Of a stretch of 64,000 bases of DNA, positions 444-12,972 are shown piece by piece. Each line of letters begins with the position of its first letter. Position 1 is the stretch's first letter. The notes beneath the pieces are model-generated. The model had not been told where the DNA came from. It worked only from the letters and a program-made list of their open reading frames with translations, and searched no databases. The position numbers and the translations under genes were made by a program. Where the stretch lies: contig CP070639.1 in the NCBI GenBank assembly GCA_020354045.1, positions 3,412,535 through 3,476,534 of the forward strand, in the 5' to 3' direction. This DNA is from Anaerolineales bacterium. GTDB lineage: Bacteria; Chloroflexota; Anaerolineae; Anaerolineales; UBA4823.

Positions 444-1214
444 TCATGCTTCTACCTCCTCTCTGGCAGGCAGATAATAAACGTGCGGTATTGTGCCCAG
501 ATCTGCCCTGAGCTGGTAATACGGGTTACTCTTCAAGGCCTGGCTTACATTCGATTCTTCATCATTCAAATCACCAAAAATGCGCGCACCAACCTGACAG
601 GCAACGACGCAGGCTGGGGTAGCCTCTTCATCTACCCCAGGAGTTAAGCCCATTGCTAAGCCACGATCAATGCGCTGGTAGCAAAAGGAGCATTTTTCCA
701 CCACGCCACGCGGCCTCCTGGGTACCTCTGGCTGACCCCAGGTAGGCACTGCCGGGTTCGGCCCTGTGAAGGCTTCCCAATTGAACGCCCTGCCGCCGTA
801 CGGGCAGGCTACCTCGCAATATCGGCAGCCAATGCAACGGTCGTAATCCATCATGATGATGCCATCTGGTCGCTGGTAACTGGCTTTCACCATACACACT
901 TCTACACAGGGGGCATTATCGCAGTGCATGCATGGGCGGGCGAGGAAAACCGGGCGGTCTCCAACTTTGCCTACCTCAATCACCCTGTTCCAAGAGATTT
1001 CGGGGGGCACATCGTTATGCGCCCGACATGCCAATGTGCAATAACCACAGCCTGTGCACTTGGATTGGTCGATCACCATAGCCCAACTGTGCGGGCTTGA
1101 CCCCTTTGGACTGGAGGCCGCGACTCTACGGGCAACTCTTAAACCTGCATAGGTGGCAGTTCCAACAGCAGCAATCTTGAGAAACTCGCGTCGGTTGATA
1201 GGTTTGTCAGACAT
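444..1214 (-). CDS. Tat-exported 4x[4Fe-4S] ferredoxin-type subunit (NrfC/PsrB/DmsB family)
   Basis: Twin-arginine signal MSDKPINRREFLKIAAVGTATYAG. Cys clusters CTGCGYCTLAC, CMHCDNAPCVEVC, CIGCRYCEVACP, CSFC...PACVVAC. I chose ATG at 1214 because GAGGAG lies 7 nt upstream; the track start 1229 sits inside that RBS. Confidence 0.85.
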   Translation of the reverse strand: MSDKPINRREFLKIAAVGTATYAGLRVARRVAASSPKGSSPHSWAMVIDQSKCTGCGYCTLACRAHNDVPPEISWNRVIEVGKVGDRPVFLARPCMHCDNAPCVEVCMVKASYQRPDGIIMMDYDRCIGCRYCEVACPYGGRAFNWEAFTGPNPAVPTWGQPEVPRRPRGVVEKCSFCYQRIDRGLAMGLTPGVDEEATPACVVACQVGARIFGDLNDEESNVSQALKSNPYYQLRADLGTIPHVYYLPAREEVEA

Positions 1215-1218
1215 TGAA

Positions 1219-2130
1219 TTACTCCTCATCGATGTAACGGCTACGGCGCTGCAAACGCTCGATCCACGGAGCGATGATCACACCCAAAGCCACACCGATC
1301 AAGCCAGACAGGAAGGTAAACCCGACCGGACTGACTGGAGTAGGGGCTTCACTCACTGGAACAGTTTGTACAGCGGCCAGATTATCAGGAGGCACAGGTG
1401 TGGGGTGTTCTTGGTGCACCTCTACCGGGTCATGCATCTGGTAGACATGGCAGGAATTGCAGGCTTCAAGGCTGACAAAGAAACTGTGATCCTTTCCAGA
1501 TTTGCCTTCCGATACTGACTGATTTAAATCAACCAGGTGGCAGTTAGAACAAGTCAGTCCTTGTTCGCTATGTGAGGTATGGGTGAAATTCGAGGAACGT
1601 TCGCGGTGGCAAGATGCGCACAACAAGGATCCACTTTCCTTCTTTAAACTTGTACCATGTGGGTCATGACAACCCGCACAGTCGAGTCCCTGTTCACGGT
1701 GAGCGCTCACCTGCCACTCAAAATAGGTCTCAGTATGGCAATCTCCACACAGATGCGCTGAACGATCGGCAGCCATCGGCTCCAATGGATGGTTTTCAGG
1801 AATGGGGCTATGACAGGCCTGGCATGTGATCCCGTCTGACTCCCAGGTGTACGTAGTTGAATCAAACCCGGTAACATGGCATTCAAGGCACTCCGCAGGT
1901 TGCCCTTGTGCTACCCAGGCATTTTGAAAAACCGGATCTATAGTAGCCTGCCCATGCGCGCCTGTTTCCCAGGCCTCGTAGAAAGCGGCATGGCAGCCCT
2001 TACATTCTAGTTGTGGTGGATTTACCTCCTGGGTATGGTTATCTGCTTGAGCAATTGCATACGTAACTAACATCAATGGCACTGCAAAGAATAATCCGTA
2101 CCCAAGACGTAGCATGATTTTTCGTAACAT
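1219..2130 (-). CDS. Octaheme c-type cytochrome with N-terminal signal and C-terminal TM anchor
   Basis: Eight CXXCH motifs: CKGCH, CLECH, CQACH, CGDCH, CAGCH, CASCH, CSNCH, CNSCH. Signal-like GLFFAVPLMLVTYAIAQA and C-terminal TM FLSGLIGVALGVIIAPW. I chose ATG 2130, which is 6 nt after GGAGG at 2137-2141. Confidence 0.85.
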   Translation of the reverse strand: MLRKIMLRLGYGLFFAVPLMLVTYAIAQADNHTQEVNPPQLECKGCHAAFYEAWETGAHGQATIDPVFQNAWVAQGQPAECLECHVTGFDSTTYTWESDGITCQACHSPIPENHPLEPMAADRSAHLCGDCHTETYFEWQVSAHREQGLDCAGCHDPHGTSLKKESGSLLCASCHRERSSNFTHTSHSEQGLTCSNCHLVDLNQSVSEGKSGKDHSFFVSLEACNSCHVYQMHDPVEVHQEHPTPVPPDNLAAVQTVPVSEAPTPVSPVGFTFLSGLIGVALGVIIAPWIERLQRRSRYIDEE

Positions 2131-2155
2131 TTGCATCCTCCAAGAATTTGATGTT

Positions 2156-2494
2156 TTATGAGACAACTGGAATAGGTGCTTGCTGGAAAACCTCACACCC
2201 CAAACAATCCTCTTTCAGATGACCACCATTTTCCTCACGAAAAACCTGCCAGCAGGGTTTTACCGGTTGCTGATACGCGAGGCAATCCGCGAGATTTTCC
2301 GGTGGGCATTTATTGATCTTCCAGCAGCCGATATTGTGGGCTGTCACCTGCATACCGGCCGTTTCAGCCTCTGCTTGCCAACGTTGATCCCAACGTCGCA
2401 ACACCCAAATCATGATTATGGTGATAATTACGGGTAGGCCGAATCGGACGAGGAGTCCAGTCATGAGTGTTAAGATGGCATTGGTCGCGTCCAT
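2156..2494 (-). CDS. Small membrane-anchored Cys-rich protein (unknown function)
   Basis: 112 aa with one N-terminal TM (LLVRFGLPVIITIIMIWVL), followed by 7 Cys including CLGC. GGAGG RBS lies upstream of ATG 2494. It is first or second in the cytochrome operon. Confidence 0.55.
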   Translation of the reverse strand: MDATNAILTLMTGLLVRFGLPVIITIIMIWVLRRWDQRWQAEAETAGMQVTAHNIGCWKINKCPPENLADCLAYQQPVKPCWQVFREENGGHLKEDCLGCEVFQQAPIPVVS

Positions 2495-2911: not shown

Positions 2912-3562
2912 TCAGGCTTCGATAATCCCCTTACGGATGGCATATTTCACCAGTTCTGTGCGTGAATGCAAATTGAGCTTAGCCATGATATTTTCTCGGT
3001 GCCGGGCTACAGTATTTGGGCTGATACTGAGTTCTTCGGCGATCTCAGCGTTACTGGCACCATCTGCCAATAAAGCCAGAACCTCTTGCTCGCGCGGTGT
3101 CAAGCCATCCAGATTAGGAGATGACCTAGCTGGCTGCGACTGCCCCAAGTAATCTCTCACCAACAGCTTTGCCAAGGAAGGGTAGATGTACACCTCCCCC
3201 CTGGCAGCGTAACGGATCGCGCTGATCAAGTCTTCCGGGGCGGCGCGTTTGGGCACGTAACCACTAGCTCCAGCTTCAAGCATCTTAAAAAAATACTCTT
3301 CATCTTCATGTATGGTCAGGGCCACCACCGAGGCTCCCGGCAACAGACGTTTGATCTGACGGGTTGCATCAATCCCAGAGATATCCGGAAGCCCGATATC
3401 CATCAAAATAACGTCCGGTTGAAGACGGGTAAGCTGGCTCAATGCCTGGCTGGCAGAATCAGCTTCTCCAATAATTTCAATGTCGCCTTCACCTTCGAGT
3501 AACATCCGTAATCCCTGGCGGACGACTACATGGTCATCAACCAGTAGTAAGCGTGTCTTCAT
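2912..3562 (-). CDS. NarL/LuxR-family response regulator (REC + LuxR HTH)
   Basis: MKTRLLLVDDHVVVRQGL...DVILMDIGLPDISG receiver domain. C-terminal LTPREQEVLALLADGASNAEIAEELSISPNTVARH. Confidence 0.9.
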   Translation of the reverse strand: MKTRLLLVDDHVVVRQGLRMLLEGEGDIEIIGEADSASQALSQLTRLQPDVILMDIGLPDISGIDATRQIKRLLPGASVVALTIHEDEEYFFKMLEAGASGYVPKRAAPEDLISAIRYAARGEVYIYPSLAKLLVRDYLGQSQPARSSPNLDGLTPREQEVLALLADGASNAEIAEELSISPNTVARHRENIMAKLNLHSRTELVKYAIRKGIIEA

Positions 3563-5036
3563 TGGTTTTTTCCTTCGAGTTATCGGTATTCACATAAGGG
3601 ATTGTGACTTCTACCATCGTACCAGATCCAACACTTGACATGATCTGGAATGTTCCACCCAGAAGGTTGGCGCGCTCACGCATTCCCTCCAGACCCCAGG
3701 AACTCCTCTGGGCAAGATTATGCACTTGCATATCGAAACCACACCCATCATCACTGACCTGTAATGTCACTTTACGATTTGAGTAGATAAGACGTAAGCT
3801 GGCGTTATCGGCGGCGGCATGCTTAACCGAGTTGGTAAGGGCCTCTTGAGCTATCCGAAACAGCGCCGTACGAACTTCTGAGGGCAGCTCTGATGTATGA
3901 CCAATAACTTCAAAATTAACTCGCAATGGTGTGCGGCTCTGGACTTCCCCGGCAAACCAGCGCAGCGTCGCTGCGAGACCCAGGTCGTCAAGATGAGAGG
4001 GGCGCAGGTCGGCGATGAGACGCTGTAATTCAGTCAGTGAATGGGTCACCAGACCCTCCAATTGTCGTATATTCTGGGTGGCTTTTTCGGCATCCTGGTT
4101 TATCGCCGTGCCAATGCCCCTCAGTCCCAGCCCAATTGCCGTTAAAGCCTGACCAGTTTCATCATGCAATTCGCGCGCGATACGCTGCCGTTCTGATTCT
4201 TGAGCCTGAACAACTCGTCGCAGTAACTCGCCACGCAAAGCCTCCCGGCGTTCAGCTTCTTCAACCCGTTCCGCTTGCAAGGCTGCGATTCGTCGCTTGG
4301 TTTCCACCTCGAAGGAACGCAGAAAGCGCATGACAAACACAGCAGCCACGACGGCTGAGGCCGCTCTGAGCAACTGAATTGGAAAGCCAAATAATTCAAT
4401 GAAGAGATCCTGGTTGATAACCGTGGAGGGGGGCAAGAGGCTATTGCGGGTAAAGGTCTGCCCGACGATACCATACCAGAAAAATGCGATCGCCGCCCAT
4501 AAGCTATCTCTACCGAATTGCGCCAAACCAGCCTGGCGAAAACGGCGCTGCTGGGTAATGAGCCCGGCACAGGCAAACATAGCTGAAGGCACTGCCAGAA
4601 TATAGCGCGTCCATACATCCATCACATTGATGAGCGGATCAAAGGCGTATCTACCCTTCATAATTAACAACCCGAAACCCCAGATGGCGGTCAGGCTAAG
4701 GGGAAGGAGCAGGCTAATGCGCCGCTGCCAGTCATCCCTGGAGAGTAAAGAAGAGCCAAATGCCCCCAAGGATAAAAAAGAAAAAGCCAGGATGATCAGT
4801 CGGAAAGCATTCCAAAGTATGTGGGCCTCCTGCTGGAAAGGTAAAATGCCCAGTTTTTCGAACATTTCCAACCATTCATGTATGCCATGAATCAAACCAA
4901 AAGCTGCTAGCGGACGTAGTGCGTGCGCCAGGCGCGGGTCGGTGCCGTGCCCGATTTCCACCAGGATACCCATACCCATGCTAAAAAAAGCCAAACCGTA
5001 AAAGAAGAATATATACGGTATCAGGGTGCTGCTCAC
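3537..5036 (-). CDS. Membrane sensor histidine kinase, NarX/DesK-type (HisKA_3 + HATPase)
   Basis: About 230 aa of N-terminal TM segments, then a coiled coil, H-box RIARELHDETGQALTAI and ATPase motifs (EALTNSVKHA, DDGCGF, GLEGMRERA). It overlaps the regulator gene by 26 nt. Confidence 0.85.
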   Translation of the reverse strand: MSSTLIPYIFFFYGLAFFSMGMGILVEIGHGTDPRLAHALRPLAAFGLIHGIHEWLEMFEKLGILPFQQEAHILWNAFRLIILAFSFLSLGAFGSSLLSRDDWQRRISLLLPLSLTAIWGFGLLIMKGRYAFDPLINVMDVWTRYILAVPSAMFACAGLITQQRRFRQAGLAQFGRDSLWAAIAFFWYGIVGQTFTRNSLLPPSTVINQDLFIELFGFPIQLLRAASAVVAAVFVMRFLRSFEVETKRRIAALQAERVEEAERREALRGELLRRVVQAQESERQRIARELHDETGQALTAIGLGLRGIGTAINQDAEKATQNIRQLEGLVTHSLTELQRLIADLRPSHLDDLGLAATLRWFAGEVQSRTPLRVNFEVIGHTSELPSEVRTALFRIAQEALTNSVKHAAADNASLRLIYSNRKVTLQVSDDGCGFDMQVHNLAQRSSWGLEGMRERANLLGGTFQIMSSVGSGTMVEVTIPYVNTDNSKEKTNEDTLTTG

Positions 5037-5082: not shown

Positions 5083-6021
5083 CTAGGTTCGTTGTTGTAT
5101 AGTTGAAATATGTGCCCATTCCTGCGTGTTGGATTTAACAAATTCCCACCACGTGGTTTGGGCACGAGTCGCAGTAATGCGCATATTGCGGGCCATATAA
5201 ATTTTACGTCGCAAGCACATCTCACTAAATTGCACCTCAACTACACGTCCAAGCTCCAAGTGCCGGGCAGCAGCCAGGCGTGAGACAAAAGCCACACCGA
5301 TCCCTTCTGCAACTGCCATTACAATAGCTTCAGCGTTGCCTAAAGTCATAGCTTCATTAAGCATATCTGGAGAAATATCATATTCTCGCAGCCCATTTAA
5401 AAGCACCTGGCGTGTTCCAGATAGCTCTTCGGGCATGATGATTGGCTCTTCTAAAAGATCATCCGGATAAATCTGACGGAAGCTTGCCCAGGGATGGTCC
5501 GCAGCTACAATTAAAACTACATCATCTATATAAAAATCCTGCAGTTCTATATCTCGATGTTCGATATGCTTGCTCAACACACCTAAAGCGACTTCTCCTG
5601 CAAGCAATTTATTTAGGACGGTATCACGGCTAGATACCAGGATGTTGATGCGGACCTGAGGATATTTACGCCGAAAGCGTGCGATCATGCTCGGAAGCAA
5701 GTATTTACCTGCGGTCGTCGAACATCCCAGATTCATCTCACCGATCACCTCTCCCTGTAAAGAGGCCATCGTCTCTTCAAGCCGGCGTGAGGCATTTAGC
5801 AGCTCTTGAGCAATTGGTTTAAGCGTCAGTCCCGTCTCAGTCAATTGAACTGTTCTTCCCTGGCGCTGGAACAAGCGTGTGCCAAAGCGTTTCTCCAGGC
5901 TGTCGATTTTCTGGCTAATCGCCGGTTGGGATAGGTGCAGCTGCCTGCCAGCTGCGCTGAAGCTGCCAGCTTCAGCTGCAACCAGGAAAGCTTTCAAATC
6001 GCTCAAATTGATCATGCTCAT
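5083..6021 (-). CDS. LysR-family transcriptional regulator
   Basis: N-terminal wHTH LKAFLVAAEAGSFSAAGRQLHLSQPAISQKIDSLE, followed by a LysR substrate-binding domain. Confidence 0.9.
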   Translation of the reverse strand: MSMINLSDLKAFLVAAEAGSFSAAGRQLHLSQPAISQKIDSLEKRFGTRLFQRQGRTVQLTETGLTLKPIAQELLNASRRLEETMASLQGEVIGEMNLGCSTTAGKYLLPSMIARFRRKYPQVRINILVSSRDTVLNKLLAGEVALGVLSKHIEHRDIELQDFYIDDVVLIVAADHPWASFRQIYPDDLLEEPIIMPEELSGTRQVLLNGLREYDISPDMLNEAMTLGNAEAIVMAVAEGIGVAFVSRLAAARHLELGRVVEVQFSEMCLRRKIYMARNMRITATRAQTTWWEFVKSNTQEWAHISTIQQRT

Positions 6022-6303: not shown

Positions 6304-6525
6304 ATGGAGGATAAATTGCCGATCTTTGAATTTGTTTGTGAGGAATGTGGGCAGTTCTTCGAAGAATTAGTAAGAAGCTCCAGCGCCATTGGCGAAGTCA
6401 TCTGTCCGAGCTGTCAGGGTGAGCAAGTTAAAAAGCAAGTATCCATATTTGCTTCCAAGCTAAGCAGTTCCTCTGGACATTTCAACTCAAGCTTCGCGAG
6501 TTCTTGCAGCACAGGTAGTACCTGA
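6304..6525 (+). CDS. FmdB-family zinc-ribbon protein
   Basis: PIFEFVCEECGQFFE...VICPSCQG shows the CxxC...CxxC pattern. The real start may be TTG 6316, giving (M)PIFEF, because GGAGG at 6306-6310 lies inside the annotated first codons. Confidence 0.7.
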   Translation: MEDKLPIFEFVCEECGQFFEELVRSSSAIGEVICPSCQGEQVKKQVSIFASKLSSSSGHFNSSFASSCSTGST

Positions 6526-6682: not shown

Positions 6683-7453
6683 TTATGATAGTAAGAATTC
6701 ACCCCAGTAACGAACTACCGCAATCAATAGCACCACGCCCAACAGGCGGCGTACCGCTGCACCAGAGAGATAACGCGAACCAAGACGGCTGCCTACCCAT
6801 GCTCCTGCCAAGCCTAAGGGAAGCAACGCCAGCCCTAATACACCTAATTCCAGGCTTCCGCTCATCGCCCGTCCTAGCAACCCACTAAATGAATTAACAA
6901 AAATGAACGCGGCTGAGGAGGCTGCTGCTTGCTTGGGAGTCCCCCACCCTGCCAGCACAATAAGTGGTGATAAAAAGATGCCACCACCGATTCCAATGAT
7001 CCCAGATAGTAAACCAATGCCAGCCCCGCATAATAATGCAACACCGAGCGATAGAGGCCGCACGCTGCTGGTATCTTCATCACTGATGCTCCGGAAAAAT
7101 AATATCCGGACAGCAATATAACTCAGCGAAAGGTAGAGCAAAAGAAAATAGGTATTCGTACTGACTTCCAGCAAGCCTCCGATAAAAGCCGCCGGGACAG
7201 AGGTCAGTAGAAAAGGCCACAACAGGCGAGGGGCAAAAAACCGGGCACGATAATAGGATACAAACGCAATAAAAGAGACAACCAGGTTTAAAATCAGTGC
7301 AGTGCTGGACATTATCTGGGGAGCTATGAAGAACTGGCTCATAGCAGCCAGATAGCCTGACGCTCCACCAAAACCTACACTGGCATACAAGAATGCAATC
7401 GCCAACACCAGTATGGCGAGCTGTGGAGGTGGAAGTGTATTGGAGTCGATCAC
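6683..7453 (-). CDS. TauE/SafE-family (sulfite-exporter-like) permease
   Basis: Multi-TM protein with LYASVGFGGASGYLAAM and GIGGGIFLSPLIVL repeats. I chose GTG 7453 as the start because it overlaps the upstream stop as TAGTG. The track ATG 7549 would overlap the upstream gene by 97 nt. Confidence 0.75.
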   Translation of the reverse strand: MIDSNTLPPPQLAILVLAIAFLYASVGFGGASGYLAAMSQFFIAPQIMSSTALILNLVVSFIAFVSYYRARFFAPRLLWPFLLTSVPAAFIGGLLEVSTNTYFLLLYLSLSYIAVRILFFRSISDEDTSSVRPLSLGVALLCGAGIGLLSGIIGIGGGIFLSPLIVLAGWGTPKQAAASSAAFIFVNSFSGLLGRAMSGSLELGVLGLALLPLGLAGAWVGSRLGSRYLSGAAVRRLLGVVLLIAVVRYWGEFLLS

Positions 7454-8088
7454 TAGGGTTTTTTCACTGGCTGTTTTGCAAGCCAGATTGGGAACTTCAA
7501 CGATTCCCCGCTTACACGATAATAAGCCAATCCAGCACATCCCTGGCAAAGGATCATCTCGCCACGTTGGATTTCACGCTCGTTGATGATCTCCTCCCCA
7601 CACTCGGTGCAATTTACCCGCACACCAGGCCTGCTTACAATCTGAGCAACCCGCTTGGAGAGGCGCACAGGTTGGAAAACCAACAGTTCATTAGTGGGCA
7701 TCACCTGGTAAGCATGTAGCTGGGCAAAATAACGGCGTTCTTCATCTTCGGTATACATGAATGCCTGCTGGCGGATTTCAGGCCGTGGAGAAATACGCAC
7801 TGCAGACTCGTTGGTAACATCCACAAAAGTAGCCGCGACTTTTCCGTAATCTTCCACGCGCAAGGTGCGATGACCTAGCGTGCAGCCGCTTGCAACCTCT
7901 ACTCCATCCGCAAAGCAACCATCTGTTTCCAGGATGGCCATCAAGCGCTTATCCTGGCGAGGGACCGCCAGGCTGAGCGCGGCTCCACCCGCCAAGCCCA
8001 TTCTTACCCCCAACACCTGACGTGGGCACAAGTGGCTATGCCTGGCTGCGGACATCTCCAGTAATTGGGCAAGTGGGATTTCGGTCAT
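7453..8088 (-). CDS. FmdE-family protein (formylmethanofuran dehydrogenase subunit E-like domain + C-terminal zinc ribbon)
   Basis: HSHLCPRQVLGVRMG...TDGCFADGVEVASGCTLGHR matches the FmdE-domain pattern. C-terminal CTECGEE...CQGCAG. GGAGGG RBS lies before ATG 8088. Confidence 0.75.
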   Translation of the reverse strand: MTEIPLAQLLEMSAARHSHLCPRQVLGVRMGLAGGAALSLAVPRQDKRLMAILETDGCFADGVEVASGCTLGHRTLRVEDYGKVAATFVDVTNESAVRISPRPEIRQQAFMYTEDEERRYFAQLHAYQVMPTNELLVFQPVRLSKRVAQIVSRPGVRVNCTECGEEIINEREIQRGEMILCQGCAGLAYYRVSGESLKFPIWLAKQPVKKP

Positions 8089-8106
8089 CTTGAACCCTCC
8101 CTGGTT

Positions 8107-8137
8107 AAAAATTCAGGCCATCTCAGATGAGACGGCC
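8107..8137 (-). terminator. Terminator hairpin + U tract forming the expression platform of the upstream structured leader
   Basis: The minus strand reads GGCCGUCUCAUCUGAGAUGGCC (8137-8116) followed by UGAAUUUUU. It lies 18 nt upstream of the FmdE-like start. Confidence 0.5.
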
Positions 8138-8160
8138 CAAAGACAACCAGACAACTGGTC

Positions 8161-8317
8161 ATCTCCTTTCCAATTCCATTTCCTTGCATGCTCATGCAGC
8201 TCCATGCCTATAAGGAAACTTCGGGTGGTCGGTGCGTTTCCACACCGGCCTGGGTCGCCTCAGCAACCGGCCTGGTGACCATAGACTTATGTTCTACAGG
8301 TTACCAGGCTCGGAGAT
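8161..8317 (-). ncRNA. Probable molybdenum-cofactor (Moco) riboswitch aptamer
   Basis: The minus strand reads AUCUCCGAGCC...GGAAAGGAGAU. The closing helix is AUCUCC/GGAGAU, with CCGAGCC at the 5' side and GGAAAGGAG at the 3' side; I recall these as Moco-motif hallmarks. Internal hairpins are UGGUAACC/GGUCACCA, GGUGUG-GAAA-CGCACC (GNRA loop) and UUUCCUU...AAGGAAA. This is recognition by eye, not a covariance-model hit. Confidence 0.6.
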
Positions 8318-8334
8318 CCATCGGGTTTATGTTA

Positions 8335-8511
8335 TCAGGATTCTTCTGTACCGGCTTCTTTCTCTTCTTCGTCTGCTTCTTCCAGGCCCTTGCGGAAGGA
8401 GCGAATACCACTCCCCAACTCGCCGGCAATTTTGCTGATGCGCCCTACGCCAAACAGCAAAATAACAATCACCAGGATGATCAAAAGTTCAGTAGGTCCC
8501 AATCGAAACAT
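8335..8511 (-). CDS. tatA: Twin-arginine translocase subunit TatA/E
   Basis: Hand translation gives MFRLGPTELLIILVIVILLFGVGRISKIAGELGSGIRSFRKGLEEADEEEKEAGTEES (58 aa). This shows the classic TatA TM-hinge-amphipathic helix layout. GGAGAG lies before the ATG. It is too short for the ORF track. Confidence 0.85.
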   Translation of the reverse strand: MFRLGPTELLIILVIVILLFGVGRISKIAGELGSGIRSFRKGLEEADEEEKEAGTEES

Positions 8512-8801: not shown

Positions 8802-8817
8802 ATTCAGAATTATGAAT
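8802..8817. promoter_or_regulatory. Imperfect palindrome ATTCAGAATTATGAAT overlapping the arsR start codon; TACAAT -10-like box at 8794-8799
   Basis: 7 of 8 positions are symmetric. A further TTATGAAT copy lies at 8782. It is a candidate ArsR/SmtB operator on a near-leaderless transcript. Confidence 0.3.
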
Positions 8818-9204
8818 GTATTATCTATAAGAACTAAGTCCCTGCCTAACAGAAAAATTGCGCAGATGTTCCGCGTGTTAGGCCAACCCATTCGCCTGCG
8901 AATTGTCTTGGCGATCGGGCTGGAAGAAGCCTGTGTGTGCCACCTGGAGACCGCCCTGGAAATGCGCCAGGCATATATCTCGCAGCATTTGATGGCACTG
9001 CGCCGCGCAGGGCTGGTAAGCTCACGCCGCGCGGGCAGAAACATTTTTTATTCATTGACCCACCCTGAACTACTCGAAATCATCCGGCAGAGTGGCACAG
9101 CCCTGGGCTTCCCAGAAACAGCGCTGCAAATTACCTCAAATAACTCCCCCTTAGAACACTGTCCCTGTCCGTACTGTGCCGGCAAAGAAGAGAGCAATGA
9201 GTAA
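8812..9204 (+). CDS. arsR: ArsR/SmtB-family metalloregulator
   Basis: FRVLGQPIRLRIVLAI...EACVCHLETALEMRQAYISQHLMALRRAGLVSSRRAGRNIFYSL is a wHTH with a CVC metal site. Confidence 0.85.
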   Translation: MNVLSIRTKSLPNRKIAQMFRVLGQPIRLRIVLAIGLEEACVCHLETALEMRQAYISQHLMALRRAGLVSSRRAGRNIFYSLTHPELLEIIRQSGTALGFPETALQITSNNSPLEHCPCPYCAGKEESNE

Positions 9205-10528
9205 TATCCTAGCATATATTACAAACTTGTTATGGTCAGGCTGGATAAGCCTGCTCGATTACCTAGCTGCACATGTGCTGCTGTGTTTGGTGCCAGCTTT
9301 TATCATAGCTGGCTATTTGAGCTCAATGGTACCTAAAGAAGTGGTTACCCGATATCTCGGACCGAAAACACGCCCCTGGATCAGTTATCCAGCCGCAGCC
9401 GTGGGTGGTTTCATCCTAGCAGTATGCTCGTGCACCATTCTGCCACTCTTTGCTGGCATCTGGAAGCGCGGCGCAGGGTTGGGAGCAGCGATCACATTTT
9501 TGTTTGTGGGACCAGCCGTCAATATCCTGGCGATCGCCTATACCGGGGCAGCCATTGGACTGGATATCGCTCTGGCGCGCATTTTGTTATCCATCCTCTT
9601 CGGAATTGGAATTGGTCTCATCATGGCGCGCTTGTTCCGTGCCGAGGAAGACCGCCGTGCCCACAACCTGGAATCGGTTGGTTTGTTTGAACAACAGATG
9701 ACCGTCAATCCAGGCATCTGGATCCTGTTTTTGCTATTGCTAGCCGTTTTGATCGTGGGAACGCTTCAGCTGGGTTGGCTAACACGCATCTGGTCAAGTG
9801 TCAATTTGCCTGTGGTTTTTCCCAGCCAAACAATGGAATTTCTCAACAAATGGAGCCTGACACCCCAAGGTGCAGCATTGATAATCTTGCTCATTATCAT
9901 CATGCCAACCGCCTACCTGGGTCTAGAAAATGTTCTGGAAAAATTTAACAACTGGACATACGCGACTCTAGCCCTGGTTGGCCTGACATTACTCCTGGCT
10001 GCCCCAGTTTTTACTTCAGGCAGTTTGGTATTAGGGATCACAGGACGATTGATCGCTGAGGCGATTTTAATGTTCACCATAGGTCTGGTAGCAATCAAGT
10101 ATTTTCAGAGACAGGAACTTGCAGGTTGGTTTTGGGAAACCTGGAAGTTTGTCAAACAAATTTTTCCGCTCTTAATCGTCGGGGTTTTCCTGGCAGGAGT
10201 CATCAAAGTGATCATCCCTGCTGAATGGATCCAATCGCTGGCAGGACACAACACACTTTGGGCTAATCTGCTCGGAGTGTTATTTGGTGTTTTCATGTAT
10301 TTTCCGACCCTGGTAGAAGTCCCGATTGCACGCATGTTTCTAGACTTGGGCATGCACCGGGGTCCACTGCTGGCTTACCTGCTGGCTGATCCGGAGCTTT
10401 CTGTACAAAGCATCCTGGTGACTGGAAGTATCCTGGGGCGTAAGAAGACGGCTGTCTATGTGACCCTGGTAGCGGTGTTCAGTACCCTGGCAGGTTATAT
10501 CTTCGGGCTCGTATTAGCCATGGTTTGA
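9197..10528 (+). CDS. Multi-TM permease of the family commonly paired with ArsR and a thioredoxin-like protein (ArsP-like, vicinal Cys pair)
   Basis: About 10 TM segments. The LAVCSCTILPLFAG motif recalls the CSC pair of organoarsenical permease ArsP. ATG 9197 overlaps the arsR stop (ATGAGTAA). Confidence 0.7.
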   Translation: MSNILAYITNLLWSGWISLLDYLAAHVLLCLVPAFIIAGYLSSMVPKEVVTRYLGPKTRPWISYPAAAVGGFILAVCSCTILPLFAGIWKRGAGLGAAITFLFVGPAVNILAIAYTGAAIGLDIALARILLSILFGIGIGLIMARLFRAEEDRRAHNLESVGLFEQQMTVNPGIWILFLLLLAVLIVGTLQLGWLTRIWSSVNLPVVFPSQTMEFLNKWSLTPQGAALIILLIIIMPTAYLGLENVLEKFNNWTYATLALVGLTLLLAAPVFTSGSLVLGITGRLIAEAILMFTIGLVAIKYFQRQELAGWFWETWKFVKQIFPLLIVGVFLAGVIKVIIPAEWIQSLAGHNTLWANLLGVLFGVFMYFPTLVEVPIARMFLDLGMHRGPLLAYLLADPELSVQSILVTGSILGRKKTAVYVTLVAVFSTLAGYIFGLVLAMV

Positions 10529-10627
10529 AATCGGCTTCGTATCGGAAGGTCAAAAATAAACATAAACACAGCACAGAAAAATTAAGATTAATCCAATGAA
10601 ATTTCTAAGCTACCACAGGAGGTCAAC

Positions 10628-10879
10628 ATGCTAGAAGTAAAGGTTTTGGGTCCTGGTTGTGCCAACTGTAAGCGGGTGGAGCAAATTGCTCGTCAGGCAA
10701 TCTCTGACCTGTCACTGCCAGCCGAGATCACCAAAGTAACGGACTATGCAGAAATCACCAGCTATCCAATCTTAGCGACACCGGGGCTGGTTATCAACGA
10801 GCAAGTAGTCTGCTCAGGTCGCATACCAACCCAGGCAGAAGTCACCACCTGGCTGGTCAATGCCCTGGAATCTGCCTAA
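10628..10879 (+). CDS. Thioredoxin-fold 'redox-active disulfide protein 2'-like small protein
   Basis: 83 aa: [19 protein letters not shown]...[20 protein letters not shown]. CxxC motif present. AGGAGG RBS. Confidence 0.8.
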
Positions 10880-10892
10880 ATCAGAGCTCAAC

Positions 10893-11990
10893 ATGACAGA
10901 AATTTCCTCCTCTCAAATGCCTGCTCAGACGAGCGTTACCCGTAAACTCTCCACGCTGGACCGTTTTCTCACCCTGTGGATCTTTTTAGCTATGGCGGTC
11001 GGTGTAGGTATTGGTTACCTATTTCCTTCTGCCGTAAAAGGCTTCAATAGCGCTGTATCCATCGGCACAACCAACATACCGATCGCCATCGGCCTGATCC
11101 TGATGATGTACCCGCCTCTGGCAAAAGTACATTACGATGAGCTGGGAGATGTTTTCCGCAACTGGAAGATATTGGGCCTCTCGCTCATCCAGAACTGGGT
11201 GATCGGGCCAATCCTGATGTTTGTCCTGGCAATCCTTTTCCTGCGAGATTACCCGGAATATATGACGGGGTTGATTTTAATCGGACTGGCGCGCTGCATT
11301 GCCATGGTAATCGTCTGGAATGAGCTAGCCAAAGGCGACACAGAATATGCCGCGGGTTTGGTAGCGTTCAACAGCCTGTTCCAAGTCTTCTTTTACAGTC
11401 TGTATGCCTATATTTTCATCACGCTTCTGCCTCCCCGGCTTGGACTGACAGGCAGCCGCGTGGACATCACCATCGGAGAGATTGCCAAAAGTGTGTTCAT
11501 TTACCTGGGCATACCCTTTCTGGCAGGCTTCTTCACCCGCCTGCTGCTTGTCCGCAGCAAAGGGAAACAATGGTACTACCAGAACTTCATTCCCAGGATC
11601 AGCCCGCTGACGCTGGGGGCGTTGCTTTTCACTATCGTGGTGATGTTCAGCCTGAAAGGTGAACTGATCGTTACAATCCCAATGGATGTCGTGCGCATTG
11701 CACTGCCATTGCTGATCTACTTCGTGGTGATGTTCCTGGTGAGTTTCTTCATGGGTCGGCTGGTCGGTGCGGATTATTCCCAGACCGCCACCTTATCATT
11801 CACTGCTGCCAGCAACAACTTCGAATTGGCAATTGCCGTCGCGGTGGCTGTATTTGGCATCAACTCAGGCGCAGCTTTTGCCGCGGTTATCGGTCCGTTG
11901 ATCGAAGTACCGGTAATGATCGGCCTGGTCAATGTGGCTTTCGTCTTGGGAAGACGTTTTTACCAGGATCGGATTCCAGAACCCTCGTGA
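10893..11990 (+). CDS. acr3: Arsenite efflux transporter, ACR3 family
   Basis: [24 protein letters not shown]...[16 protein letters not shown]...[17 protein letters not shown] are typical Acr3 strings. The start is uncertain (10860 or 10893). Confidence 0.85.
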
Positions 11991-12114
11991 ACCAACAAGC
12001 GCGCTTCAATAAACCACTACTCTATTCCAAATGAACCATCCTATTTGAGATCATTACAGAATATTGATCGTTAACCCGCGACCTCATCCTAAGGACATCA
12101 GGAGAACGCACAAT

Positions 12115-12972
12115 ATGAGCGACGATGTTAGCGACATTGCTGCCTATTACAATACCGATCCAGAACGAGAACACCAGCGTTTAGATAGGCATCAACTTGA
12201 ATATGAACTCACCTGGCGCTATTTAGACGAGTACCTGCCATCTCAAGGCTCGATCCTGGAAGTCGGCGCGGCAACAGGAAAATACACACTGCAATTAGCT
12301 AAACGAGGTCATGCAGTCACAGCCGTTGACATGTCAGCGGCGTTGGTTGAAGAATGCAGGAAAAATATCATAGAGGCGGGACTCAAGAAGCAAGTGCGAT
12401 TCTTACTTGCCGATGCGCGCAATCTCGGTGAAGTGAGGGATAGAGAATTTGATGCGGTTCTTTTAATGGGACCTCTGTATCATCTAATCGAAGAATCTGA
12501 CCGCAAAAAAGCCTTGAAGGAAGCATATGACCACGTGCGAGGAGAGGGTCTCATCTTCTCCACATTTATAAGCCGTTTTGGCATAATGGGTGATTTGCTC
12601 AAAGATCTACCAAATTGGATAGAGCAACAAGCCGAAGTCCGGTCGCTATTAGAGAGCGGCAAACGCCCTGATGGTTCTCCGCGCGGTGGGTTCCGGGGAT
12701 ATTTTGCGCAAATATCTGAGATTATCCCTCTTCATGAAACGATCGGATTTGAAACTCTAAAGTTAGCGGGGGTTGAACCAGCAATCTCAGCAGATGACGA
12801 GAGTTACAATAAACTCCAGGGAAAACAGCGCCAGCTATGGCTTAATCTGCTGTATGAGTTAAGTACGCAGGAATCCATTCTCGGGGCATCAAGACATATT
12901 CTCTATATTGGCAAGAAAAAAGTTAACTCGCTCCTGTCACAAGCAGATAATTCCACACGCCTGAATCAGTAA
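12115..12972 (+). CDS. Class I SAM-dependent methyltransferase
   Basis: ILEVGAATGKYTLQLAKRGHAVTAVDMS is a G-x-G-type motif I. GGAG lies 10 nt before ATG 12115. Confidence 0.75.
   Translation: MSDDVSDIAAYYNTDPEREHQRLDRHQLEYELTWRYLDEYLPSQGSILEVGAATGKYTLQLAKRGHAVTAVDMSAALVEECRKNIIEAGLKKQVRFLLADARNLGEVRDREFDAVLLMGPLYHLIEESDRKKALKEAYDHVRGEGLIFSTFISRFGIMGDLLKDLPNWIEQQAEVRSLLESGKRPDGSPRGGFRGYFAQISEIIPLHETIGFETLKLAGVEPAISADDESYNKLQGKQRQLWLNLLYELSTQESILGASRHILYIGKKKVNSLLSQADNSTRLNQ

Follow-up and report, generated by a model that had tools for sequence, protein, structure and literature searches.

A 64-kb stretch of DNA (the window, analysed here over its whole length) from a sediment-derived Chloroflexota (Anaerolineae-like) genome contains, at positions 8317-8161 of its minus strand, a structured RNA element that has a P3 stem and belongs to the known molybdenum cofactor (Moco) riboswitch family RF01055. 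The element is placed on the minus strand between a tatA gene and two coupled genes encoding an FmdE-like protein and a TauE-type permease, and the whole arrangement is likely explained by a model in which a Moco-sensing OFF switch acts by transcription termination, is supplied with transcript by read-through from tatA, and controls genes of molybdenum acquisition. The RNA itself is ordinary, and its value lies in its regulon. Control by a riboswitch that senses a cofactor is unusually clear as an indication of function, and here it ties FmdE and TauE proteins to molybdenum supply across many Chloroflexota; structures of FmdE proteins (PF02663) have been solved since 2010 with no function assigned to the family, and for most TauE/TSUP permeases the annotation goes no further than a name.

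Membership in the family is established by both homology and folding. As the sole match at the gathering threshold in the window, a scan of the 64 kb on both strands (Rfam release 15, cmscan) found RF01055 (Molybdenum/Tungsten riboswitch aptamer, Moco RNA motif) on the minus strand (8184-8327; 50.1 bits, gathering score 36, E 5.3e-9); the match covers the full model, positions 1-135, the optional P3 stem included, and all conserved positions of the family are intact in the window element. The minimum free energy (MFE) fold of 8334-8086 (minus strand) reaches -102.5 kcal/mol, compared to a mean of -75.4 kcal/mol for shuffled sequences (z -5.5), none of 200 shuffles equals it, and it yields the same closed multi-hairpin element as had been proposed from the sequence. 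The locus had previously been read by eye, from the letters alone, and this sequence-only reading had recognised the Moco motif and put forward a covariance-model search by which the recognition could be checked; the search gave a significant minus-strand match to RF01055, the Moco-motif strings and the GNRA-capped hairpin are present where that reading had placed them, and the family score and fold statistic together put the recognition well beyond chance. A covariance model built in this analysis (R1) matches 8151-8327 at 107 bits, by construction. No second riboswitch copy was found in the window by Rfam or by R1, which was run on the window and on 160 related loci; one extra R1 match, in locus L029 (14 bits, E 0.16), was discarded as noise.

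The aptamer, which runs from P1 to P1 (8161-8317) according to the RF01055 match, the fold and the relatives, is closed by a P1 helix formed by AUCUCC (8317-8312) and GGAGAU (8166-8161), as seen in the fold and in the invariance of both strands in relatives. Inside P1, the Rfam match delimits P2 with its internal loop (8309-8293/8285-8270), P3 (GGUUGC-UGAG-GCGACC, 8268-8263/8258-8253) and P4 (8250-8241/8236-8227), which is capped by a GAAA tetraloop at 8240-8237, while the fold defines P5 (CCGA/UUGG, 8224-8221/8173-8170), into which a hairpin typical of the lineage is inserted at about 8219-8178. Similar inserts occur in many relatives, and P5 inserts of varying length are common among the 32 homologous leaders that were aligned. 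Two conserved junctions, CUCCGAGCC at 8315-8307 and a perfect GGAAAGGAGAU at 8171-8161, the latter of which holds the P1 3' strand, are invariant or near-invariant in these 32 relatives, as is the GAAA loop. Compensatory changes support P2 and P4, where both sides change in 14 of the 15 RNAalifold pairs, and P3 and P5 vary in length among relatives yet form hairpins.

The 3' boundary of the element required correction of the automatic annotation. Rfam ends its match at 8184, where P1 is formed with a mismatch by a GGAGCU (8203-8198) that lies inside the P5 insert hairpin, and this boundary was rejected, as the 32 relatives, R1 and the MFE fold all use GGAAAGGAGAU instead. The GGAGAU of P1 belongs to UUGGAAAGGAGA, the invariant terminus of all 32 related elements, and in alignments of 8 and then of 32 homologous leaders every one terminates in (U)UGGAAAGGAGA. 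The Rfam 3' end is thus misplaced, 23 nt early, because of the decoy GGAGCU; in L001, the closest relative, which is free of such a decoy, Rfam itself picks the distal P1 strand. The bounds of 8317-8161 with AUCUCC/GGAGAU, drawn in the sequence-only reading, are therefore right where the Rfam 3' end is not, and in this lineage automatic RF01055 coordinates may consistently stop too early on the 3' side.

As to which cofactor is sensed, RF01055 spans two ligand classes, and the element could in principle respond to tungsten cofactor (Tuco), with the operon serving tungstate acquisition. Such a reading finds some encouragement in the presence of FmdE homologs in operons for tungsten formylmethanofuran dehydrogenase (3d00; PMC2954224) and in the sediment origin of the host, as anaerobes there often use tungsten. 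However, P3 is the marker that separates the Moco subclass from Tuco, and the inspection for P3 that had been suggested beforehand places the element in the Moco class: P3 is present in the window element, and a hairpin of the P3 region is found in 31 of the 32 relatives. The subclass rule is a correlation, in which RNAs with P3 go with Moco genes and those without it go with Tuco genes (Regulski et al., 2008; PMC2408646). Even in that founding study, the instability of Moco precluded direct binding assays (PMC2408646). The partners found in relatives are, in addition, ModA (by an equivalog model) and MOT1, not TupA or WtpA, and a Tuco-sensing element is accordingly judged distinctly unlikely. 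By analogy with its family, the element would thus be expected to bind Moco and to switch in response to it. The leader of Escherichia coli moaA (PMC2408646) shares its P1-P5 architecture, P3 included, the junctions CUCCGAGCC and GGAAAGGAG, and the GAAA-capped P4, and differs in lacking the large P5 insert hairpin of the window element. Chloroflexota were not among the host phyla listed in 2008 (PMC2408646). The leaders of Eubacterium limosum focA and fetABC1 (PMC11725836) resemble the window element in belonging to the same Rfam family, in using a terminator platform and in preceding non-canonical transporter genes; unlike it, they are without P3, are assigned to Tuco, and are partnered with iron and formate/nitrite-type transporters (PMC11725836).

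Between the aptamer and the fmdE-like gene lies an intrinsic terminator (8107-8141), found by a consensus scan, with a 13-pair stem (8141-8129/8124-8112), an AUCU loop and a UUUUU tract at 8111-8107. It starts 20 nt past P1 and corresponds to the terminator-like hairpin and U tract that had been noticed ahead of the ribosome-binding site. A stem with a T-rich tail is found in 22-23 of 30 leaders of relatives, depending on the settings of the hairpin scan, and six relatives instead carry GGAAAGGAG 13-20 nt ahead of the start codon, which indicates sequestration of the Shine-Dalgarno (SD) sequence. Two platform types on one aptamer are typical of genuine riboswitches. The 5' arm of nearly all relatives' terminators contains GUCUC, seen in at least 20 relatives and complementary to the P1 3' strand (GAGAC/U), and over 24 loci the duplexes predicted for this arm and the P1 3' segment have a median energy of -10.2 kcal/mol, versus -6.7 kcal/mol for shuffles. 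In the window, the corresponding antiterminator segment AGGAGAUGACC (8157-8167) matches the terminator 3' arm GAGAUGGCC with one mismatch and could pair with GGCCGUCUC (8137-8129) in a duplex of -10.6 kcal/mol.

These features allow a model to be proposed in which bound Moco would hold P1 (AUCUCC/GGAGAU) closed, and, with P1 closed, the hairpin at 8141-8112 and its U tract would terminate transcription. Under cofactor shortage, P1 would open, and its 3' strand, together with the bases that follow it (AGGAGAUGACC), would pair with GGCCGUCUC in the terminator 5' arm and block the terminator, such that transcription could proceed into the coupled fmdE-like and tauE genes. The two pairings would exclude each other, as is standard for such switches. 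The OFF direction is suggested by family precedent and by the conservation of the complementary segments. The E. coli moaA leader is likewise situated upstream of genes linked to molybdenum metabolism, with OFF logic expected, although control there is translational, with the ribosome-binding site in P1, whereas the window element is followed by an intrinsic terminator.

Two genes lie downstream. The fmdE-like gene (7453-8088, minus strand, 211 aa) has its ATG at 8088, preceded by the SD sequence GGGAGGG at 8101-8095 (8095-8101, read directly from the sequence), and its product matches Pfam PF02663 at 102.6 bits, compared to a cutoff of 22.9. The tauE/TSUP-family permease gene (6683-7453, minus strand, 256 aa) matches PF01925 at 110.4 bits (cutoff 32.6) over residues 14-250, and its GTG (7453-7451) overlaps the fmdE stop TAG (7455-7453) to give TAGTG. 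The two family assignments, the ribosome-binding site and ATG, and the translational coupling had all been called in the sequence-only reading, and Pfam and direct reading bear them out. NCBIfam holds no equivalog or specific model for either protein. The FmdE-like protein combines the FmdE core domain with a C-terminal CxxC...CxxC zinc ribbon; the residues H17, H19, C21, D56, C58 and C69 of its core motifs (HxHxC, DGC and C...H) are invariant, as are C160, C163, C181 and C184 of the ribbon, and its structural relatives in the PDB, by which the FmdE fold is already established, are 2gvi (E 1.5e-7), 3d00 and 2glz. No solved structural relative was found for the TauE-type permease, the orthologs of which are 253-256 aa long.

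The association of these genes with the riboswitch was followed through about 160 related loci from genomes and metagenomes. The FmdE-like protein has thousands of relatives, the named ones all from Chloroflexota (Anaerolineales, Caldilineaceae, Thermoflexales), and a survey limited to one genome per species gave 80 fmdE loci, all in metagenome-assembled genomes of Chloroflexota. The riboswitch lies directly upstream of fmdE in 30 of the 80, with 26 at the gathering score and four full-length matches at 29.7-35.4 bits; R1 revealed no additional copies at the fmdE loci. Downstream, tauE follows fmdE in 14 loci, every one of which has the riboswitch (ten at the gathering score, four at 29.7-35.4 bits), whereas the 42 loci that lack the riboswitch and have sufficient flanking sequence are all without tauE (Fisher p 5e-7, uncorrected for kinship). 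On the FmdE tree, the loci with tauE are spread over six or more separate branches, at 55-65% FmdE identity. In a reverse survey that started from TauE on metagenome contigs, relatives of at least about 53% identity have fmdE ahead (10 loci), and those below about 52% have neither fmdE nor riboswitch; all six fmdE-tauE pairs with enough upstream DNA carry the riboswitch, at 61-102 bits with R1. The sequence-only reading had proposed looking for the structure upstream of orthologous fmdE-tauE pairs, and it is thus carried by 14 of 14 pairs from genomes and 6 of 6 from metagenomes. Neither of the two conditions under which that reading would have counted as refuted, the lack of a covariance-model match and the lack of the structure at such pairs, was borne out.

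What occupies the position after fmdE in sister loci is most informative as to function. In L056 it is ModA (TIGR01256 equivalog, 204.6 bits) and then an ATP-binding cassette (ABC) permease, in L033 the molybdate transporter MFS_MOT1, and in L066 MoaA; in L034 fmdE is followed by YqeB (TIGR03309, 223 bits, above cutoff; 3614-4456) and then tauE, and in L035 by an open reading frame of similar size (925-1800, YqeB by position and length, with no Pfam match) and then tauE. Poly-ferredoxins follow fmdE in L002 and L008, the latter with a molybdopterin oxidoreductase upstream as well, a DcuC-type carrier follows in L071, and in several loci the riboswitch precedes a solitary fmdE. From this distribution, the fmdE-like gene is a regular first gene of Moco-regulated units in Chloroflexota. 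Several of these loci have further features of their own. L066 carries two complete Moco aptamers in tandem (2481-2637 and 2737-2920) ahead of fmdE-moaA, and at 1777-4200 of L056 an SD-sequestering riboswitch, fmdE, modA and an ABC permease follow one another, with fmdE leading a mod-type operon. YqeB is a selenium-dependent molybdenum cofactor biosynthesis protein (TIGR03309). Among loci with a riboswitch-less fmdE, the gene is followed in L047 (3675-4577) and L057 (3728-4714) by one for a PhnD-like (PF12974) periplasmic oxyanion-binding protein, a pairing that may represent a further transporter partnership, and in L006 fmdE is closely followed by a T-box leader (RF00230, 106 bits; 961-1207).

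The main argument for the function of the permease is that the slot after fmdE holds known molybdate importers, cofactor-synthesis genes or tauE, from which it would follow that TauE carries molybdate. TauE would thus be a positional analog of ModABC and MOT1, which occupy the equivalent slot (riboswitch-fmdE-X) in L056 and L033, although TauE itself is of the TSUP/TauE family (PF01925) and unrelated to either. The TauE-type permease is proposed as a likely oxyanion (molybdate) carrier, and the FmdE-like protein, with its metal site, as its cytoplasmic partner. Members of the same Pfam family have been shown by experiment to transport molybdenum or the similar oxyanion sulfate, namely OsDISMO1 of rice, which transports molybdenum in a direction left unresolved (PMC12227400), and TK06_RS10770 of Pseudomonas, which mediates sulfate uptake (PMC11535334); however, one is eukaryotic and the other comes from a distant bacterium, and both are likened to the window TauE by Pfam family. 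The FmdE proteins of methanogen fmd/fwd operons (PF02663; 2gvi, 3d00, 2glz) share with the window protein the core domain, the HxHxC and DGC motifs and the C-terminal zinc ribbon (PMC2954224), but the window locus has no formylmethanofuran dehydrogenase and shows Moco riboswitch control and a link to tatA instead. It was reported in 2010 that most FmdE family members adjoin genes for metal-ion transporters (PMC2954224).

The Pfam name of the permease, 'Sulfite exporter TauE/SafE', raises an alternative in which it exports sulfite or organosulfonates and is derepressed when low Moco stops sulfite oxidation, with FmdE as an accessory unrelated to molybdenum uptake. OFF logic would suit overflow export no less than import, and the transport direction of OsDISMO1 is itself unresolved (PMC12227400). 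The occupation of the same slot by ModA/ModB, MOT1, MoaA and YqeB in sister loci nevertheless points to acquisition, fmdE is found alone under the riboswitch in several loci, and direct sulfite export by a bacterial TauE has never been shown (PMC12227400), such that export is considered unlikely. Under the acquisition model, it is proposed tentatively, and at somewhat less than even confidence, that FmdE-like protein and TauE constitute a new bacterial molybdate/tungstate acquisition module that is interchangeable with ModABC/MOT1, is switched on at Moco shortage and is embedded in a TatA transcription unit. The pair of fmdE-like and tauE genes lies outside the described Moco riboswitch regulon. 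A partial literature search, made without curated regulon databases, turned up no publication that connects the Moco riboswitch with FmdE or TauE genes, and no TauE-type molybdate carrier was described for bacteria in the literature searched. The positional swap with ModA/ModB, MOT1 and MoaA makes the TauE-molybdate hypothesis directly testable; the module proposed above, if real, would provide the first function for the FmdE family and a third type of molybdate carrier in bacteria.

The source of the transcript that reaches the riboswitch is the remaining component of the model. The gene ahead of it, tatA (8335-8511, minus strand, 58 aa), is identified by Pfam TatA_B_E (51.1 bits) and NCBIfam TIGR01411 (60.4 bits, cutoff 53.9), and its stop codon TGA (8337-8335) is separated from P1 by a 17-nt spacer (8318-8334). 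A consensus scan found no sigma-70-like promoter between the tatA stop and P1, in agreement with the sequence-only reading, which had seen no convincing one. Read-through from tatA is the most likely source, since the aptamer begins 17 nt past the tatA stop and the promoter appears truncated here; in this the window element differs from the E. coli moaA leader, which is situated behind a ModE/FNR promoter. A tatA gene lies ahead of fmdE, in the same orientation, in 12 of the 80 loci from genomes and in 2 from metagenomes. Five of the 12 lack the riboswitch and have tatA-fmdE gaps of -8, -4, -4, 11 and 33 nt, and in these the two genes form translationally coupled operons. The association between tatA and the riboswitch is not significant (Fisher p 0.19), so tatA is linked to fmdE and not to the riboswitch. 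RNA evidence was available as Logan metatranscriptome contigs of depth 2-7, which show the presence of a transcript, not its termination: contigs 8202-8429 and 8256-8429, from two metatranscriptomes, run unbroken from tatA into the aptamer, and another run covers fmdE up to 8099.

An alternative that deserves weight is that the riboswitch is transcribed from a promoter of its own, situated within tatA or at its end, with tatA a mere neighbour and no functionally important joint transcript. In L029, L061, L068 and L088, the gap between tatA and aptamer is roughly 50 nt and contains TTTGAw and GATATA boxes, similar to -35 and -10 elements, just ahead of the aptamer and after a palindrome. This palindrome, GTGAyA-N3-4-GTCAC (CRP/FNR-like), lies over the tatA stop at ~2755-2775 of L029, ~2655-2672 of L061, ~2712-2730 of L068 and ~262-280 of L088, and together with the boxes it is plausibly a regulated promoter. 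The window, L001, L081 and L070 have only 19 nt between the tatA stop and CUCCGA. The window spacer aligns to the promoter-like region TTTGAw...AAACCCGATATA of L061, L088 and L068, with the window, L001 and L081 matching the TGATw...AAACCCGAT part and missing ~17 nt with the -10 box and start site, and the 17-nt spacer thus looks like a remnant of a promoter kept in relatives. An extended -10-like TGATAACAT over the window tatA stop, picked out by eye, could serve a separate promoter and was rejected as not conserved in L001 and L081. Although the RNA evidence for read-through is thin, both independent metatranscriptomes are continuous over the tatA stop into the aptamer, the scan yielded no promoter-like site, and the coupled tatA-fmdE loci do without the riboswitch altogether; a separate promoter in the window is therefore regarded as somewhat unlikely. 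A tatA-riboswitch-fmdE-tauE unit, a possibility already raised in the sequence-only reading and backed by the coupled loci and the bridging RNA contigs, is moderately favoured, and within it the element, fed by tatA read-through, would double as a conditional terminator of the tatA message. The riboswitch would then exemplify an internal conditional terminator within an operon, not a 5' leader. The recurrent tatA-fmdE coupling hints at a link of cofactor supply to Tat export, and if this is true, the supply of cofactor would be coordinated with the capacity to export molybdoenzymes through Tat.

A number of observations weigh against the model as a whole. At the level of the RNA, P1 is without covariation, its CUCC/GGAG and one U-A pair being constant in relatives, and, as the helix is 4-6 bp long and invariant, its assignment rests on conservation. 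The window antiterminator is weak, with 8 pairs and one mismatch, and is not the MFE alternative, and a local hairpin of GGAGAUGACCAG and CUGGUUGUCUUU (8132-8167, about -18 kcal/mol) competes for the P1 3' strand while the terminator still forms. At the level of the transcript, no metatranscriptome contig spans 8100-8201, and the RNA contigs, of depth 3-5, could include DNA carry-over. At the level of the regulon, 50 of the 80 fmdE loci are without riboswitch, and presence or absence of the riboswitch is clustered on the FmdE tree (shared by 71 of 81 nearest neighbours), so the counts are not independent; the exceptions in the TauE survey are L084 and L142, of which L142 (partial, 58% identity) has neither fmdE nor riboswitch. 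Finally, both protein assignments argue from guilt by association, by which a role of the FmdE-like protein in molybdenum acquisition is probable and a function of the TauE-type permease as molybdate importer is plausible.

The folding results bear in particular on the antiterminator. As the MFE and suboptimal folds of the window prefer the local hairpin plus terminator, a thermodynamic antiterminator was rejected as the basis of the mechanism. The GGAGAUGACCAG/CUGGUUGUCUUU hairpin is not conserved, being absent from the closest relative, L001, and the mechanism was for this reason built on the conserved complementarity between P1 3' strand and terminator 5' arm instead. The weak antiterminator, and a competing hairpin that leaves the terminator intact, would also be expected if the aptamer were decayed and non-functional and the downstream hairpin merely a constitutive terminator of tatA. 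Decay of this kind is highly improbable: all conserved family positions are intact and the family score is well over the gathering score, L001 and L081, at about 75-77% FmdE identity, keep aptamer, terminator and operon, RNA contigs from fmdE exist, and a constitutive terminator would leave fmdE-tauE without any promoter.

The remainder of the window provides the genomic setting. Converging on the end of tauE is a gene for a small Zn_ribbon_8 protein with a Ser-rich tail (6304-6525, plus strand), beyond which lie a LysR-type regulator gene (5083-6021, minus strand) and a NarL-type two-component pair (2912-5036), the latter upstream of the gene for a multihaem cytochrome c (1219-2196). This gene is followed by one for a Fer4_11 iron-sulfur protein (444-1229), and the two (444-2196, minus strand), at the window edge, resemble the start of a respiratory operon of the alternative-complex-III or molybdoenzyme type. 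Among 25 families listed of the 75 matched in 13000-64000, no further molybdenum-related genes were seen; the same region encodes the shikimate-pathway enzymes DAHP synthase, DHQ synthase, shikimate kinase, EPSP synthase and chorismate synthase and, in a family scan of large open reading frames, four PEMT/ICMT-like methyltransferases. On the other side of the locus, a cluster of the arsenic resistance type diverges from tatA (8812-12972, plus strand) and comprises ArsR, an ArsP_1 permease, a thioredoxin-like protein, an ACR3-like SBF carrier and an S-adenosylmethionine (SAM) methyltransferase.

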